A stretch of 63,186 nt of DNA, filler included, from Globobulimina sp. (lineage: Eukaryota): NCBI GenBank assembly GCA_003354225.1. It is 10 parts of 10 records of this genome, joined end to end, with 100 filler letters (N's around TTAATTAATTAA, not from the genome) between each part and the next. Parts side by side here need not be neighbours in the genome. Positions count along the whole stretch, not along the records: positions 38,020 to 44,245 come from PIVH01000337.1; 9 more parts are not named here. One strand, 5' to 3'. A program made the translations under genes and the position numbers. The notes beneath the pieces are model-generated. The model was not told where the DNA came from, ran no database searches, and saw only the letters and a list, made by a program, of their open reading frames with translations. Below are positions 502 through 44,245 of this stretch, in pieces (within the stretch, counting starts at the first letter, position 1; the number at the start of each line of letters is the position of its first letter).

Positions 502-1617
502 TTATTTCAACCATTTATGCTGTTTTATTTCTTCTAAGCTAATTCGTTTATGTTCATATTGAAATATTAACCCAAATAAATCCAACAAATCTTTGTTTAC
601 ATAATTTAATTTATTCCATGACGCTAATAACTCCGCAATATGTCCATTCATAATAGACACAAATCTTTGATCAGAATCGATTGAATCATGCCATGGTTTT
701 GCGCCAATTACCATTATCCATAAACATACACCCAATGAAAATACATCATTGCTTTTTGCATCAAATAACTTTTTTTTGTGTGTAATCTCTGGACTTTTAT
801 AACACCGTTTTCCGCAATATTTATTGGTATAAAAATTGCTGCAATTTTTAAAGAAATCCGATAAACCGAAATCACATATTTTAGTTTGAATATCACAACA
901 TATGAACTTTATGAATTGGCCATTATTAACTGGTACGATATTAATATTGTTTACCAAGAAGTTTTCAATTGAAATGTCAAAATGACAAACATTTTGTGAA
1001 TGAATATATTCAATACATTCAATCATTTGTTTAAATAAAACTTTTACTAATTTGTGCCATTCTGATATTGCAATTTTCCCAACTAATATAAATTGATGTG
1101 CTCTTACGATAAAATCAAAACAGGATTTACCGCCATACTCCATCACCAAATAATAATTTGCGTCACTTTCAATGTACAATGATGATATATGTGATGACTA
1201 TCATCATTTATAAAAACAAAAAAGTTCAAACCTCTTAAAAAATCCAACATATTTCGTCACGGAAGGAGGACATTTTTCATTCTTTGTTAAATATTTAAGA
1301 ATTTCTTTTTCCATTAAAATATTTTCATATACTTTATATTTACCAGTTATACCATTTACCACTGCCAATGATTTTGAATGTAAATATTTCTTTGTTACTT
1401 TTATAACAACTTTCATGTGAGATAACTCATGAAAACCACTCCATATATTCCCTGTGTTTAATATATTGGGGTTTTATGTGAATATATAGCCTTCATATTG
1501 CATGTAAATAACAACCAAACCTTGCAATGTATCTGCAATTTTGTCACAACGAACAAATCCAGCATTTTTCATATCATTTATTGTTAATGCTTCTTGTTTG
1601 TTGGTTTTGTCAGTCAT
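502..1617 (-). CDS. Ser/Thr protein kinase, 3 exons (introns 1452-1520, 1166-1231)
   Basis: Spliced reading MTDK..DTLQ/GNIW..KVVIK..ME..HFDISIEN..DFG..KSPE..DVFSLG. GT-AG introns join the ORF fragments 1204-1416 and 502-1179 in frame. Confidence 0.85.
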
Positions 1618-36610: not shown

Positions 36611-37863
36611 TCACCAACCATCATCATCCCCCAAATCAGGATCTTCAGTGTCTGGATCCGTCTCATAATCAACATAGCCATCAATCCTTTCTTCAATTAA
36701 ATCTTTATTATCAAAATATAGATCCGTATCATCATAATAATCCTCATTATCTGTATAATCCCCATCCTCTGCAAAATACTGCGCCAAATACTCCTCAAAA
36801 TTACTGTCCACAGTGTTGTCGGAATTGGTATCCGTATCATCATAATAATCACTCTCAGTGTCCGTATTTGTGTCATATCCAAATAGGTCATCATCGTCAT
36901 ACACTTGCTGCAAATCCGAATCATCCGTTTCTGTATCTACGCCAACAATACACTCAGTAGACAAAAACCGCAATATCTCTTTATGGAAATCTTCCGGATT
37001 ACCTACAAAGGCCGCATGCTCTCCTTTTTTTATCATCACATTGCTATGATACGGTATGTTATCCATCCAATATAACGATTCCTCCTTAAACGGCGTCTTA
37101 TCCCTTTCGCCGTACATCACAAGCACTGGCACATCGACCTACATATTGACATATTTATGCATGCGAATTTGCGATAGATTCACGGAAATGATGTGTTACA
37201 AATATTAACTGATTGGTATTGCTGCTTCGAATATTTATTCGTCGATTGTGGCGCAATCGCAATAAATCCACGCAAATCAATGTCATTCTCTTCCAATAAG
37301 ACGGGTAACCCATAAATGCCTGACATGGACGGCGCAATCACCACAACTTTGGATAGCCGTAATTTGTCGATTAAGTTTTGAATGAAAGTGATATACTCCT
37401 CATTGTCAGCGGGCGGCGTGGCCTTTTTGCTCAATTTGTAGCCGGGCAAATCTATTGCGATGGTCTTATATCCCCAATACGAGAAAATTTGCAAAGTGCC
37501 TAAGCCTTTCCATGTCGCAGAGCCATACTTTGCGCCATGTAATAATAATACGTCGGGTTGTCGGTGCCCGCCTCTTCCACGCGGTTCTGTATAACGATAA
37601 AATATATTACCGACACCATCGATATTGACTGTATTCTCAAAGACTGGGATTGATTTCTTATCTGAATCCAAGGCGGACACTGTTTCGCTACCCACTAACA
37701 TTGGAGGTGGATGGTATAATGCCGGGCCAAATGATACGTATAAGAGTACTAAGACTATGACCGAGATGCAGATACCCCATACAATTATGCTATTCCATGA
37801 GCAATCTTCTTGGTTTTGTTTACGATTTAATTCTTGGTATTGTTGTTCTCTGCGATATCTCAT
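36611..37863 (-). CDS. ABHD14-like alpha/beta hydrolase, type II membrane anchor, acidic Asp/Tyr tail (intron 37139-37209)
   Basis: VLLLHG, AIDLPG, nucleophile PSMSG, YGERD, GEHAAF. Confidence 0.85.
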
Positions 37864-38019
37864 GCTTTGTAGGTGATATTTCACTGAAAAATTTACTTCA
37901 AAATAAAATTAAATAACTCNNNNNNNNNNNNNNNNNNNNNNNNNNNNNNNNNNNNNNNNNNNNTTAATTAATTAANNNNNNNNNNNNNNNNNNNNNNNNN
38001 NNNNNNNNNNNNNNNNNNN

Positions 38020-40895
38020 CCAATCCTTGGTGAAAAATCATTAAAATTGTTGCAAATTCTTGCGATTCTAATTAGTTGTGTATAGAAGACTCTGTATCCC
38101 ATAGATGTATGTACATTACTGTTTGCAAATCCATATCTCACCACATAAAAATTGAAGTCATCCGTTTTGTTATACACTGCAATTCTATGTTTATCAGGGT
38201 TAACACATACCAATATATCAAGGAAACAACTTTCATATTTTGACTTAGCTGTGTTTTCTAGTGGTAAGCAGTTTGGATAAATAAGTTTAGCATGTTCTAG
38301 GAAGTTATCACAATTAATTGAAAGAATGTCATCTATATACCTCATTGTATGGCTCATTGATTTGGCTATCGTTTTGTTATTAATGTCTGTAAGAAAGTCA
38401 TATTCCAGCATACTTAATACAAGGTCTGCAATTAAAGGACTAGCATTGCCTCCCATAGGTACACCACATATTTGTTTAAATAAGAAACCGGCAAATTTAA
38501 CGTATGTTTCATCAATAACATTGTTGATAAGGCATTTAGTGTCAATGTTGTCTAGCATTGCCATATAACTACCTTTTACTTGGTCAGCATAATATACATT
38601 ATTGTAAGTAACAATTACATATTTTTTGTTAGCATGTCCAAATAGCAAATCAACAAGTTTGAACAACTGTTTTTTAATAATTTCATGAGGAAACATTGTG
38701 TATAGAGAACTAAAATCAGCGGTACATATGCTTTGCAATTGGTTAGCTTGAACTTTATGTTCTATTTTTCTATGTGCTTCCAGACTACCTTTGATTGACC
38801 AGTAACAATTATGTCCTTTCCTTTTGCTAACTATAGCACAGTATTTTTCAAAGTGTTGTTGAAAATGTGCTAAAACTCGATGTAATATTCTTGACATTGG
38901 CTTGGTTGATGAGTTACGAGCACCTGCTATAAATCGGAATTTGTATGGATTTTTATGCAATTTGGGTGTTGCGAATATAACAGGAAGCTTTTCGTCATCT
39001 GTTTCAAATTTAATAAGTCCTGTTTGTGCTGTAAGAAGTTTATGTTTATCAATAAGTTTACTTGCATCAATGTCACATGGTTTATAAACATCATTACCTA
39101 TTACAGTACAGGTTCCGTTATTATCCGTTTTAACACCAAGTTCCTTACACATAATTTCTATATAATATTTTTTACAAATAAAAATAAAGTTATTGCTTGC
39201 TTTATCTGCTGGTGCAATGACAAACTCATTCTGTAAATGCATTAATTCCCTTTGACTATCTTCGAGTGACAAACAAGAAACCATTCTTGTATTTCTAATA
39301 TTCTTTGACAAAAATTTTATTCTATTATCAATGATATTTACATAAAGCCCTTTGTATTCCTCTGTAGCCATAGTAACATCAACATATCTTCGAATTTTTG
39401 CAAATGTCTTCTTTATATATTCATCAACAACTTCCATAGCCACTTTTCTAACTTCTGTCCAATCAAATGATTTTGGCTCTCGAAACTTAGCTCCCTTACC
39501 AAAAAGTTTTCTGAGTTTTATATCATTAATGATATTTAGATCACCTGTAATAACATGCCCACATTGACTATAAACGTATTTAGAAGTTGAACAATTACAT
39601 TGTTTATTTGCAAAATTATTTAAATCATTATTTTGCAGCGTTTTTAATGTTTTATTATAATTGAACAATTTACGACTAATAGGTGTTTCATATTTATATG
39701 TAATAATGGGTAAATCGGATTTTTTATTGTTAATTGAAATTGTTTTTTGCAATCTTCTGTCCTTGAAAATGGTTTCTAGTTTAAGTAATTCAATACCCTT
39801 ATTTGGATATCTAGCAACAACAATAACTCCTTTAGATTTATTGTTGATTTTATTATTATAACCATAATATCCAGCCATAAATGCTTGTGTTGCAAGTTTT
39901 GCATCTCCATGCCAATGATCCAGGTTACCAGTTTGAATGGTTTGATTAACGAACAGTAAATTCTTTTTTGACATTGATCGTAAGAATATGTAGAGTTTCC
40001 GTCTATCAAAAAAGCCATTTGAGCAATCAATATTATGTTTAGTTTTATTGATGATATCAGGGTCAAGTTTCTTTGCTGTTCGTTTCTTCTTTCTGTTTCT
40101 ATTTCTTCTTGTAGATGGTAATGGTTTAGTGAAGTAAGGTTGTGTTGATTTAGATGCAGGGTCAATTCCGCATGACACATCTCCGTAGCTTTTGATTCTA
40201 TCATTCATACCATAAGGAAAAGCAGTAATCAATTGTCGAATCCAAAAATCTTCATTATTTTCACATTCCTTTCTATTTTTTATTTTATCTGTAGATATAG
40301 GTGTAGATTCTATAATCTGCACTTGTAGGTCATTAACATTATGTCCACTTTTATTAAAATGCTGTACTAAATAAGTATTTGTTTCATTTTTCTTGATAGA
40401 ATATACATGTTCAGCAATTCTCTCTTTAAGTTTTCTAATAGTTTGTCCAACATATTGCAGTTTACATTTTTGGCATGTGATAAGGTAAACAATGTTTTTA
40501 GTATTACAATTTAATTGTACTTGATCTGTACATGCTATATATTTGCTATTAGTGATAGTGCAATTTATATGTTGTTTTTCTTTGATGTATTTGCAGCAAC
40601 TGCATCTATTTCCATTGCATTTTTCTGTATAGTTATTAGTTGTATTATTATCATATATTTCGGGAATACAATTACATTTATTATTTTGATTAGTTTGTTT
40701 GGTGAATATAAAACAAGCTCCTTCCAAAAATCTTCTTGGATGACTAGAAGATACACTTTGACTAGCACTCAGTCCATCCCACATAGCATGTGCCCCGGCA
40801 CCACTGTGAAATGAAGGTGGTGTTACGGAGGGTTCACCCCCAGTGATTTTAGAACCCATCTGGGGAAAAGGGCCGGTCTCTGATTGTACTTCCAT
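38020..40895 (-). CDS. PLE GIY-YIG endonuclease-reverse transcriptase (continues at 44126-43970; 1010 aa total if the first ATG is used)
   Basis: CNTKNIVYLITC..C..QYVGQT...L.ER..EH, E.FWI..L....PYGMN; ADKA, PKLHK, ADFSSLYT, GVPMGG, RYIDD, FLD. Confidence 0.95.
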
Positions 40896-41170
40896 TGTTT
40901 GATTAATGGTGGAATAAAATTGTCAAGATGAATGAAACCAGGTATTGGACAAGAGTCAATAGGTCAAAACAAAATATTTGACTTAAGTATATTTAAAGAA
41001 AAGATGAATTAGACAAATTATCTGACTAGATGTCAGTAATAAATTACTGACTCAGAGTATTATTCTATTTACAACGGAAGGAGAAATACTATAGACATTG
41101 ATATGTAAATTTGTATGGAACTTATAACTATATGTGAGTTTATTTGGAAATAGATGTAGTTTATTAGATG

Positions 41171-41480
41171 ATAAGACCACTGCCATAAGACACTGTAATA
41201 AGACAATAAATAAGAACACTGTCGACAGACAGTAATAAGACCACTGTCGAAAGACAGTAAACAAGACCACTGTCGAAAGACAGTAAATAATACCACTGTC
41301 GAAAGACAGTAATAAGACCACTGTCGAAAGACAGTAAATAAGACCACTGTCGAAAGACAGTAAATAAGACCACTGTCAGAAGACAGTAAATAAGACCAAA
41401 TGATAATGATGCTAATATCATATGCGAAACATTAGACCACTGTAAAAGACAGTAATAAGACACTGTCCAAAAGACAGTAA
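41171..41480. repeat. Tandem ~25-bp hairpin repeats (AAGACC-ACTGTC-GAAA-GACAGT-AAT)
   Basis: About 6 near-exact central units plus degenerate flanking units; the intact units carry a 6-bp inverted repeat. Confidence 0.9.
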
Positions 41481-41771
41481 AACTAATATTTGAATAAGAA
41501 TGCCAATAAAAGTATCTGGAATCTTGAATGCAAATCAAAATAAAATTTCGAAGAATTTGTTTTGTCGAAAAAAATTGAAAATACGACGAAAATTAGCCGA
41601 TTACGATTTAGTTACAGTACCCTATGCTTAACCATTGGCCCTGATATTTGTGATAAGCAGGGGTCTTGAAACGAAAATATTGGCGAAAAATTTAAATTTT
41701 TTCATCAATATTTCAACAATACGTATCAAAACCTAATTTTTATCACAAAATCACATTTATGCTAGGCCAAG

Positions 41772-43575
41772 TTATGGTTTTTCATATTCGGAGGGGTTAG
41801 AGGGAAATTCTTTATAATGCTTAGCTGCAAGATCTCCTATAGCCATCTTGTTGTAACCAACGAATTTTGCTTTAATGCCAGCATTTTTATATGCTTCGAC
41901 TACAACATTTCTCTTTTTCTTCTCTTGTTGTTCCATGTATGGTAAATCATTTTGAACTGATACATTTTTGAATTTTTGGCCTAACCCTGAGCATGGAGCC
42001 CATTGCTGTAAAGTTTTCTTAAGTGACATAATGTAACCACGATCAGAACGACGAGTAAAGGCAACTATAAATCCAACTGGAAGCTCATGAATAACATCAA
42101 TGTGCTGGAAGATTTTCTCAACGATTTCTGGATTCATACGAAGACCATCTATACAGAGGAATCGAAAGACAGATTCATAATCATTTGTGGTAATCTTCTC
42201 TTCTTTGAAAAGATAATCTTTGTCGAGACCGAAGATACGGATATTATGACCTCGTGTGACTTTTTCCAAACCATGTATCAATTGATCATGTTTATCCTGA
42301 ACTTCATGGACCTCCTTAACCTCAGTTTTAACACGTTTGATTTCCTGTTCCAACAATTGTATGCGTTTAGTGTTCATGGCAACCTGTAAGATTTGTAAAT
42401 GGTTTTTATTATAGTTATGGTGTAAAAGCAAGTGTATAAGATAATTTTTAGTTGCAACAATGTATAAAAACAATAAATCTGGTATGACATGTGACTGATT
42501 GTTTGTTATATAACATTTTAAATGTATAAAATAAGAATTTTAGGATTGTGCAGTAAATGTGAGTAAAAGTATAACTAAAATGGTATTTTATATATATGGA
42601 ATTTAAACTTGTATTATATAATTGCTAATTATGTTAGGGACTATATGTGAATTAATGTAGTTTGTACAATATATTATAGTGTGTGGGAAATGGCTTGAAT
42701 GGTATAGTGAAAGTAACAAATTATAGTTAATGAATATTGTTATAAAAAATTTTAACAAAATTTTTATATTATTTTTGGCGTAAAATGTATGAATTATAAT
42801 TATTTAACATAAAATTTAAACTTATAAAGTATATAAAGTTAAAAAGAGGATTTTACTTTTGATAGGTGAAATAGTAACTAATATATGTATTTTAATTTTA
42901 TATGATGAGTAAAATATGTTTGTATAGTGTATATTAAAGTTAAAAAATAGTACAGACCATCCACCCCTATTGGGGTCGATGTTCTGTACTATTCAGAAAA
43001 AACCCTTTTCGTTGTTATAGTTATGACTTATATACAATTTTTAAACGAAATATAGTAACACTAAATGGCTGCTTGACAGTCTAAAATTAGAACTGATAGA
43101 TAGTATATGACACTAGGAAACAACTGGATTATGATATTGTTTAACAGCGAAAAGCTAGCTAGTTACCTTGGAGCGGGCAAGCCTCTCCTCACAAGGGCCA
43201 GCTAGTGATAGTAATAAAATTATATTAAGTGAAAACCAAATAAAAAGGCTATATTTTAAAAAATTATGGAAATCCGTCCCAGTACAACTACCTAAGGCAA
43301 TTTTACTCCTATCTGAATCAGGTTTCGGTCCATTAGTTATCTAGACCTGATACAGTGCACTGGACAGGGGGACCTCGTCAGTAGACAACCTGCCAGGCTT
43401 CTTACCTAAGTACTCAAAGGAATAAAAAATGACTAAGTAAATGCAGTAAAATCTACTCTCAAAAATTAGGGCAAAAAACATTATTTAAAAAATTATAAAT
43501 TTACTTAACCTCAATTTGTGTTGTTACCTCTTCATCTTCTTGAGTCTCCTCTCTAGGACGCTTGGAATGGGGCAT
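41772..43575 (-). CDS. L1 ORF1p-like (coiled coil + RRM-like) protein, 225 aa; exon 43575-43510, putative intron 42384-43509, exon 42383-41772
   Basis: Coiled coil, then R.HNIRIFGL, IDVIH, FIVAF..RSD and VSVQNDL....KKR, as in transposase_22/ORF1p. The upstream exon MPHSKRPREE..IE joins in phase 0; that splice is inferred. Confidence 0.65.
43317..43389 (-). ncRNA. Hammerhead ribozyme, non-circularly permuted; predicted cleavage after GUC (between 43344 and 43343)
   Basis: Minus strand reads GTTGTCTA-CTGACGA-GGTCC-(18 nt)-ATCAGG-TC-TAGATAAC-TAAT-GGACC-GAAA-CCTGAT. Full core with stems I (8 bp), II (5 bp) and III (6 bp plus the core A-U). Confidence 0.8.
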
Positions 43576-43750
43576 TATACAATGTTTTAAGAGACCAAAG
43601 AAATCAGTGAAATCAGAGAAAATAAAAATAAAATAAAAATTTTACGTTTCTCAGCCCGAGTGCCTCAGCACTCTGACTTATATTTTTTGATCTGAAAACA
43701 ATTGAAATTCTAGTACTTGTTATCCATATATTTTAAACAGGTTATTTGTA

Positions 43751-43827
43751 TAAAACCACTGACAGAAGTCAGCAATAAGACCACTGACATAAGTCAGTAA
43801 TAAAACCACTGGCAGAGCCAGAAATAG
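43751..43827. repeat. Three hairpin repeat units related to the 41171-41480 array
   Basis: ACCA-CTGAC-agaa-GTCAG, ACCA-CTGAC-ataa-GTCAG, ACCA-CTGGC-aga-GCCAG. Confidence 0.8.
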
Positions 43828-43969
43828 ATGTATACTATGTAAAGTTTCTGAGTTAAAGTTTTTTTATTATGTTTTCAGGTCAAATTAGTTTGATTTGATA
43901 CTGAGACTTTTTACTCTTAGCCTATTTATTGCACTTTATATTTGACGCTAGGATATTGACCGCGCCTTG

Positions 43970-44245
43970 CTAGGCAATATGAGAAATACAAAAATTGGCA
44001 ATTTTTTGTTTATTATCAAGTTTGAATTTTAGCAATAATGTACTGTAAATGGTGGCAAATTTATAAAATGTATGATATAAGCTAGCTTTACTATAACCAT
44101 TTTTAAGCAAAGTATGTATAAGCTGTCCAATCCTTGGTGAAAAATCATTAAAATTGTTGCAAATTCTTGCGATTCTAATTAGTTGTGTATAGAAGACTCT
44201 GTATCCCATAGATGTATGTACATTACTGTTTGCAAATCCATATCT
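43970..44245 (-). CDS. C-terminus of the PLE RT ORF (wrap-around)
   Basis: Overlaps 38020-38138 exactly; ends ..LLKNGY..CISHIA*. Confidence 0.9.
   Translation of the reverse strand, partial: RYGFANSNVHTSMGYRVFYTQLIRIARICNNFNDFSPRIGQLIHTLLKNGYSKASLYHTFYKFATIYSTLLLKFKLDNKQKIANFCISHIA

Follow-up and report, generated by a model that had tools for sequence, protein, structure and literature searches.

A probable type-CSG hammerhead ribozyme conserved in Naiad-like Penelope-like retroelements

The three conserved blocks of a hammerhead ribozyme, the CUGANGA block (C), the cleavage-site block (S), and the GAAA block (G), can follow one another in six orders, which were named by Eckert et al. (2023, Nucleic Acids Res 51:2850; PMC10085705) and which include type-CSG. 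Type-CSG was represented there by two similar sequences from metagenomes (CSG-1 and CSG-2), which were cut at the expected site in vitro and presented “modest covariation”, and for which the main text named neither host nor gene context. Here, we describe a motif with this block order in a 63,186-nt stretch of DNA from Globobulimina sp. (assembly GCA_003354225.1; hereafter, the window), on a contig (PIVH01000337.1) that represents one unit of a Penelope-like element (PLE). This motif is very probably a conserved type-CSG hammerhead, predicted to be self-cleaving, located between the end of open reading frame 2 (ORF2) and ORF1 of a tandem Naiad-like PLE. A preliminary description of this DNA had called such permutations rarely reported and possibly novel in this PLE clade; the topology is indeed rare, but since it has already been published as type-CSG, the window motif is not a new kind of hammerhead.

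According to Craig, Yushenova, Rodriguez & Arkhipova (2021; PMC8557442), canonical hammerheads are missing from Naiad and most Chlamys elements; these authors also listed unexplained “HHR_core” and “HHR_half_core” matches (HHR, hammerhead ribozyme), with halves 35–50 nt apart; the distance between the CUGACGA and GAAA boxes in the window is 48 nt. In the main text of Eckert et al., “Penelope” occurs in reference 58 only (PMC10085705). A full-text literature search found the terms “type-CSG” and “type-SGC” confined to that article; in the main texts covered, the search found no type-CSG hammerhead assigned to Naiad-like elements, no fourth bridging helix (helix P, below) in such elements, and no clade with the helix II 5′ strand detached from CUGANGA. 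No PLE subject appeared, by title, among the recent (since 2023) works listed on non-circular hammerhead permutations, and permuted hammerheads were not found in the available parts of the works listed on Naiad or Penelope-like ribozymes, including a 2026 retrozyme preprint.

Strands, helices, and predicted cleavage site of the window motif

Re-reading of the minus strand (43390–43313) reproduced all strand letters and positions of the preliminary description, including a complete hammerhead core (CUGACGA, GAAA, and GUC), three helices, and the order then called A-C-B, i.e., CUGANGA block, cleavage-site block, and GAAA block. The first block, GTTGTCTA-CTGACGA-GGTCC, is located at 43389–43370 (starting at 43390 if helix I is counted as 9 bp); the site block, ATCAGG-TC-TAGATAAC, at 43351–43336 (ending at 43335 with the 9-bp helix I); and the GAAA block, GGACC-GAAA-CCTGAT, at 43331–43317. 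Each block is uninterrupted, as in type-CSG; the motif does not belong to the canonical types I, II, or III, as its order is C-S-G rather than CGS, GSC, or SCG and as it contains no unknotted three-way junction. Helix I comprises 8 bp, among them G43386-U43339, and reaches 9 bp if G43390-U43335 is added, two of the nine pairs then being G-U; both turn into C-A on the opposite strand, which identifies the minus strand as the folding strand and agrees with what had been argued earlier from a single G-U pair. Helix II has five Watson-Crick pairs, closed by G10.1-C11.1, and helix III contains the A15.1-U16.1 pair (A43323 with U43345) and 6 bp, with C15.2-G16.2 present as well; past a U-U mismatch, it can gain three more pairs (43355–43353 with 43315–43313). 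Helices I, II, and III each cross the others, making the fold pseudoknotted. The cleavage triplet is GUC, and the cut is therefore predicted between C43344 and U43343, a position placed by helices I and III and by the type-CSG ribozymes cut in vitro (PMC10085705).

The linker between helices II and III comprises 18 nt (43369–43352) and contains the palindrome CAGTGCACTG (43362–43353), while the linker between helices I and II reads TAAT with the 8-bp helix I and AAU (43334–43332; 3 nt) with the 9-bp helix I. The earlier proposal that these linkers fit the fold was supported by the instances parsed here, where the I-to-II linker has 0–9 nt (26 instances) and the II-to-III linker 10–34 nt. A further helix, designated helix P, pairs the bases directly 5′ of helix I with bases just 3′ of the helix II 5′ strand, and represents in this motif the helix uniting stems I and II that characterizes type-CSG. 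In the window copy, the nested minimum free energy (MFE) structure gives helix P 8 bp with two 1-nt bulges (strands in Table 1), or 10 bp when two further pairs, which compete with the distal end of helix I, are included. This structure holds helix P and the extended helix III together, with the 5′ half of the palindrome in helix P and the 3′ half in the helix III extension. The parser described below detected helix P in 12 of 12 type-CSG instances, with 4–14 bp of differing sequence (for instance, 12 bp in L068, and 14 bp in both L047 and L043) and a linker strand beginning 0–6 nt past the helix II strand in relatives; these pairings come from parser and MFE structures, not from one common alignment.

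A search of the window with Rfam reported no hammerhead, either at the gathering score or at E ≤ 10, as had been expected for a motif that standard descriptors would miss. A descriptor composed of CTGANGA, GAAA, UH, and three helices, applied in all six strand orders and on both strands (helix I ≥ 4, helix II ≥ 3, and helix III ≥ 3 bp), presented the motif as its single match in the 63-kb window. The total of 20 bp was reached by none of 300 dinucleotide shuffles of the window, for which matches were collected at much looser thresholds than in the window search (maximum of 18 bp, seen twice). Since a shuffle tail this shallow would leave room for chance matches in a scan covering many windows, the weight of the assignment rests on the related elements.

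Conservation, covariation, and inheritance in related elements

A total of 124 protein homologues of ORF2 were identified at E ≤ 0.001 (best identity 41%), almost all on short metagenome contigs. With an alignment of 44 of these homologues, we fetched 67 metagenome-contig loci and 12 loci on contigs of metagenome-assembled genomes (MAGs), all with the ORF on the plus strand. The latter 12 loci (L068–L079) are located on short contigs assigned to MAGs of bacteria or archaea (Flavobacteriales, Omnitrophota, Nanoarchaeales, and others), and are mis-binned eukaryotic retroelement contigs; Naiad matches in MAG contigs were likewise remarked by Craig et al. (PMC8557442).

In these 79 loci, the strict descriptor, applied to both strands, gave seven matches. 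Each of the seven lies on the sense strand and 3′ of the ORF (for L074, given that its contig is circular) and has a non-circular order; canonical strand orders gave no match, and no Rfam hammerhead family matched in 40 related loci. Inspection of the contexts of all CTGANGA sequences outside ORFs revealed further instances, missed by the strict descriptor because of a helix I mismatch, an extra U after CUGANGA, or a 30-nt insertion. With a parser for the full architecture, 28 of 99 sense-strand CTGANGA sites scored at least 20 bp, representing 27 of the 79 loci and the window, as compared to 0 of 43 antisense sites (maximum of 17); local shuffling, repeated ten times, gave 1 of 402 sites. The recurrence that the preliminary description had proposed as a check is thus observed, with the same order, sense strand, position 3′ of the ORF, and covariation (below). 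Of the 23 loci whose 3′ flank spans at least 1000 nt, 13 contain an intact-core hammerhead, and in loci with such a flank the CUGANGA box lies 258–1926 nt (median 673) past the end of the protein match. The CUGANGA and GAAA columns are invariant in alignment A2.

Besides these intact instances, two copies are cut off by the contig end (L002 and L044) and three are decayed, with a broken first helix III pair (L017), a bulged helix I (L001), or the core CGGAAGA (L078); a second partial copy is present at L070:1–36. A search allowing one core mismatch gained only L078, the remaining candidates scoring equally on both strands, and no other ribozyme family was found at the Rfam gathering score in 20 loci without a hammerhead. 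One distant locus that matches only the GIY-YIG part of the protein (L059, ~895–965, plus strand) presented an apparent canonical minimal PLE-type hammerhead, with CTGAAGA, a 5-bp helix II hairpin, GAAA, and a palindromic CCGG before UC; it was not reported by Rfam at the gathering score.

Several rows of the MAFFT alignments A2, A3, A5, and A6 were out of register at the site block or at a detached helix II strand, and the model-based alignments A4 and A7 and our own structural parser were therefore used to assess covariation. A covariance model was built from 11 type-CSG instances, including the window copy, with helix III alone specified; its 15 matches constitute alignment A4, while no match was obtained in 16 of 30 sources, including the variant L001 and the contig-cut L044. 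Because helices I and II are absent from the model, A4 was not fitted to them, and they nevertheless presented 92% and 90% pairing, respectively. Across helices I–III, 90.2% of A4 cells contained standard pairs as compared to 68.9% after partner shuffling, the covariation score was 0.363 as compared to 0.105 for shuffles, and both sides had changed in 11 of 14 pairs (shuffled mean 5.8); none of 500 shuffles equaled the observed values for pairing, covariation, or double changes, and only 36–50% of cells paired when partners were slid by 1–3 columns. These counts are conservative, because L026 and L074 are misaligned at the site block. Hammerhead helices I–III thus occur in register and covary.

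The 26 non-identical parsed instances showed two to six pair types at nearly every helix position, together with the invariant pairs classical for hammerheads: G10.1-C11.1 (Table 1) and C15.2-G16.2, the latter present in 12 of 12 type-CSG instances. Positions not required by the parser also pair (I4 and I5 in 24 of 26 instances each, II5 in 25 of 26). In type-CSG members, insertions are located directly after CUGANGA, between A9 and G10.1; of the 11 related type-CSG loci, three contain one extra U (L026:3803, L043:1696, and L068:4371), and a fourth presents a 30-nt insertion resembling two hairpins (L070:4947–4976).

A second architecture, designated here the split form, was identified in 16 loci (14 distinct) of a sister clade (L007:3833–3907, L009:2858–2938, L011:3801–3876, L018:3740–3821, L029:2063–2134, L032:2937–3030, L036:2693–2769, L049:1960–2035, L052:1839–1909, L053:1170–1250, and further L016, L020, L023/L077, and L025/L073), with the order II5′, P, [III3′-UH-I3′], [II3′-GAAA-III5′], P′, I5′-CUGANGA. 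In these elements, the helix II 5′ strand is found upstream of the site block, CUGANGA stands at the 3′ end, and no pairing joins the bases that follow CUGANGA to the strand preceding GAAA. This leaves the backbone open between A9 and G10.1, the same place that holds the extra U in three type-CSG members and the insertion in L070. A model specifying helices P and III alone, built from five seeds and searched against 80 sources, matched the seeds and five more members (alignment A7) and nothing on the antisense strand. In A7, all four helices covary: pairing extends to 94.7% of cells, and to 67.9% in shuffles, with covariation scores of 0.643 and 0.175, respectively, and none of 500 shuffles equaled the observed value on any of five measures. 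The helices outside this model pair in 95.6% (helix I) and 92.0% (helix II) of cells, while the analogue of helix P, which the model fits, pairs in 94.7%, with 9 of its 10 pairs changing on both sides. Read from its sequence, the split form is type-CSG with [P′-I5′-CUGANGA] shifted from front to back, i.e., a circular permutation with ends between A9 and G10.1, a topology that is outside the six block orders named by Eckert et al. (PMC10085705). It may cleave as well. No conserved pairing was seen by eye in the sequences flanking the open A9/G10.1 junction. In two of these loci, the contig ends exactly 43 nt past CUGANGA (L011:3868–3918 and L018:3813–3863, L011 ending in a T run); this shared endpoint may mark the 3′ end of the element or may be a coincidence.

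The two forms are separated on the protein tree, which was inferred with FastTree for the 42 of 80 sequences with an ORF of at least 600 aa and is unrooted, so that the order in which the forms arose was not read from it. A single branch (SH-like support 92) divides the 11 type-CSG from the 12 split-type elements, and the window element lies inside the type-CSG clade. The ribozyme-type label changes once on the tree as compared to a shuffled mean of ~8 (0 of 500 shuffles as low), and the ribozyme type has therefore been inherited with the element.

Host element and other features of the window

The contig carrying the motif (Table 1) has identical ends over 119 nt, indicating a unit of 6107 bp in a tandem or circular assembly. 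One independent Logan contig (depth 18), from the only run holding the sequence, connects 44126 back to 38020 with the same joint. This back-joint of 6107 nt is in line with a tandem organization or one with pseudo-long terminal repeats (pLTRs), as are direct repeats spaced 5.27 kb in L069 and 5.0 kb in L070; identical contig ends were also found in four further related loci. The element is multicopy, with many variants at 90–99% identity in the same sequencing run.

ORF2 reaches past the end of the contig, and its remainder is read through the 119-nt overlap. Its Pfam domains GIY-YIG (aa 143–193) and RVT_1 (aa 656–869) are present in the same sense-strand ORF, with GIY-YIG N-terminal to the reverse transcriptase, which identifies a PLE with an N-terminal endonuclease and bears out the PLE host named in the preliminary description. 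ORF2 also contains a CX4CxxC finger (C102, C107, and C110), CCHH residues (C150 and C153, between GIY and YIG, H172, and H188), a CxC motif (C442 and C444), and DKA (D573-K574-A575), where the other form is DKG. These Naiad diagnostics are invariant or at least 90% conserved in the alignment of 44 homologues and, as every Naiad sequence diagnostic tested is present, the host is by this measure a Naiad-like PLE. ORF1 presented only a weak Pfam match, to DUF1192. The ribozyme starts ~580 nt past the ORF2 stop and ~940 nt ahead of the ORF1 ATG, in the non-coding part that would be the pLTR.

Table 1. Features of the element and of the hammerhead motif, in coordinates of the window.
Feature	Position	Strand	Remarks
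Contig, whole retroelement unit	38020-44245	-	119-nt identical ends
ORF2, main part	38020-40895	-	ATG at 40895; GIY-YIG, CxC linker, reverse transcriptase; leaves contig end, continues through overlap
ORF2, C-terminal end	43970-44126	-	stop codon 43972-43970
ORF1	41772-42377	-	201 aa from first ATG; heptad-rich N-terminus; between ribozyme and ORF2
Helix P, 5′-flank strand GCCUGGCA	43391-43398	-	nested MFE; directly 5′ of helix I
Helix I, 5′ strand GGUUGUCUA	43382-43390	-	9 pairs with 43343-43335, 2 of them G-U; covaries in relatives
Catalytic box CUGACGA (C3 to A9)	43375-43381	-	columns invariant in alignment A2
Helix II, 5′ strand GGUCC (G10.1 first)	43370-43374	-	G10.1-C11.1 in 26/26 parsed instances
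Helix P, linker strand UGuCCAGuGC	43357-43366	-	nested MFE; includes palindrome 5′ half
Helix III, 3′ strand CUG-u-AUCAGG	43346-43355	-	6 bp, U-U mismatch, 3 bp
U16.1 and C17; predicted cut after C43344	43344-43345	-	GUC triplet; type-CSG analogy
Helix I, 3′ strand UAGAUAACU	43335-43343	-	sequence read
Helix II, 3′ strand GGACC	43327-43331	-	3 nt past helix I
GAAA box (G12 to A15.1)	43323-43326	-	invariant in alignment A2
Helix III, 5′ strand CCUGAU-u-CAG	43313-43322	-	sequence read and nested MFE

Two arrays of 25–26-nt tandem repeats were observed in the element, one between ORF1 and ORF2 (41185–41481) and one between the ORF2 stop and the ribozyme (43750–43825); the repeat unit is the hairpin ACTGTC-GAAA-GACAGT on the plus strand. 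The window as a whole comprises ten contigs of 6206–6243 nt in descending length, joined by spacers of 44 N, TTAATTAATTAA, and 44 N, and ORFs or repeats that cross a spacer (e.g., an ORF at 37968–40922) are therefore artefacts. A neighbouring contig encodes an alpha/beta-hydrolase-fold protein (37180–37908, minus strand; Abhydrolase_6, E = 3.8e-6) unrelated to the element.

Alternative explanations, proposed mechanism, and comparison with known systems

A number of observations weigh against a self-cleaving type-CSG hammerhead. In the window copy, helix P requires two bulges, nested folding of the 95-nt region gives an unexceptional MFE (z = −1.44, with 16 of 200 shuffles folding equally well), and the nested MFE structure includes a small hairpin (UUGUC/GACGA) competing with the core. 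Among the relatives, 10 of the 23 loci with a 3′ flank of at least 1000 nt gave no intact-core hammerhead. From the literature, the two type-CSG ribozymes described before cleave slowly (kobs of 0.004 and 0.026 per min; PMC10085705), and in a Poseidon PLE hammerhead mutants left in vitro retrotransposition and insertion unchanged, with no RNA-seq ends reported at the hammerhead site (PMC11167929). These Poseidon results, together with a knotted topology that retains both products after a cut, would fit a hammerhead-derived fold conserved without cutting, as a structural RNA signal (e.g., a binding site for the reverse transcriptase/endonuclease protein of the element, or a mark for the start of reverse transcription). 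We regard this as unlikely, since every catalytic nucleotide is kept in 28 instances while the element proteins are only ~30–40% identical, a degree of conservation that would be hard to explain without selection for catalysis, and since type-CSG ribozymes do cut in vitro (PMC10085705).

Slightly less probable still is action only as a dimer or in trans, in which the palindrome CAGUGCACUG would pair two transcripts and the enzyme strands of one would cut the site strand of the other, an extension of the palindrome-driven dimerization suggested in the preliminary description. The linker does contain a perfect 10-nt palindrome, such as arose in 519 of 100,000 shuffles of that linker, and canonical minimal PLE hammerheads reportedly cleave as dimers via a palindromic helix III (Lunse et al. 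2017). However, a linker palindrome of at least 10 nt was present in none of 25 parsed relatives (longest 8 nt), and both halves of the window palindrome are engaged intramolecularly, in helix P and in the helix III extension; dimerization is therefore not seen as the mode of action. Helices of 9, 5, and 6 + 3 bp are also long enough to form in cis, and the published type-CSG examples cleave co-transcriptionally (PMC10085705). As for a chance resemblance, or a scrambled hammerhead resulting from misassembly of a repeated element, the sequence does come from a short-read assembly contig of a multicopy element with many variant contigs, and a 20-bp match is conceivable when the shuffle tail is summed over a scan of very many windows. 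Order, strand, and position are nevertheless shared by independent contigs of other assemblies with differing helix sequences, and the family-built model matches the window copy, which was 1 of its 11 seeds, and nowhere else in the window, making chance or misassembly extremely improbable. None of the 40 variant letters listed (of 192) between the window and contigs of the sequencing run lies in the motif.

For the preferred explanation, a type-CSG hammerhead acting in cis, we infer by analogy that the window copy self-cleaves and what cleavage does for the element. The RNA would form the usual hammerhead core by three mutually crossing helices, with helix P clamping the outer ends of helices I and II by pairing the 5′ flank with the II-to-III linker, and would self-cleave after C43344. 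Transcripts reading through tandem copies or pLTRs would thus be cut to unit-length RNA beginning with the I3′/II3′/GAAA/III5′ segment and ending with the CUGANGA segment. After the cut, the 3′ product would be kept by strands of all three helices (at least 20 bp), so that the two ends of unit-length RNA could re-associate, which would favour religation or circularization, or require unwinding.

More broadly, we give an even chance to the proposal that Naiad-type PLEs kept a hammerhead, vertically inherited in non-circular permutations missed by standard descriptors, with one clade using a split form open between A9 and G10.1; this would explain the “missing HHR” and half cores of Craig et al. 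and would give type-CSG its host. The dozen divergent instances described here, with their host and their position in the genome, settle the biological reality of type-CSG, known before from two similar orphan sequences. The absence of a canonical hammerhead in Naiad and Chlamys, as opposed to its presence in all other PLE clades, has reportedly been used to argue for a dispensable or parasitic ribozyme; if permuted forms are general, the ribozyme would be near-universal in PLEs and its topology a clade marker. A knotted topology that pairs both cleavage products leads to testable predictions on end-joining and circularization of element RNA and the split form, if active, would show that a break in the backbone between A9 and G10.1 is tolerated by a hammerhead.

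Canonical type I hammerheads, minimal and dimer-forming, are reportedly present in PLEs (Cervera & de la Pena 2014; Lunse et al. 2017). These share with the window motif the core, the PLE host, the place in a non-coding repeat or pLTR, and the sense strand, but fold as an unknotted three-way junction whose palindromic helix III is very short, whereas the window motif has a helix III of 6–9 bp, the order C-S-G, and no Rfam match. Naiads share with the window element an N-terminal GIY-YIG, CCHH, a CX2–5CxxC finger, CxC, and DKA for DKG, as well as a tandem or pLTR organization and relatives on short “bacterial” metagenome contigs, although the unit is 6.1 kb here as compared to 3.4–4.4 kb for Naiads (PMC8557442); unlike the orphan half cores of Craig et al., the two hammerhead halves form a complete permuted hammerhead here. 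Type-SGC (the HRIMA-1 motif and its variants; PMC10085705), which is a circular permutation of type-CSG, is also non-circular, with crossing helices I–III, a ~3-nt I-to-II linker, and a bridging stem; it occurs in metatranscriptomes beside hairpin ribozymes, in presumed circular RNA replicons, and with a contiguous block C. Unlike type-SGC, the sister clade described here has the site and GAAA blocks first and the helix II 5′ strand upstream, detached from CUGANGA. The closest system is type-CSG itself, as CSG-1 and CSG-2 share with the window motif the block order, two core pseudoknots, a short I-to-II linker, a helix uniting stems I and II (here, helix P), and an origin in metagenome DNA. 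From lengths alone, our guess is that L006 and L002 are close to CSG-1 and CSG-2 (~46 and ~27 nt around the cut, as compared to products of 48–49 and 29 nt). Unlike those two similar sequences, however, the type-CSG instances described here comprise 12 divergent members associated with a retroelement ORF at a fixed strand and position.

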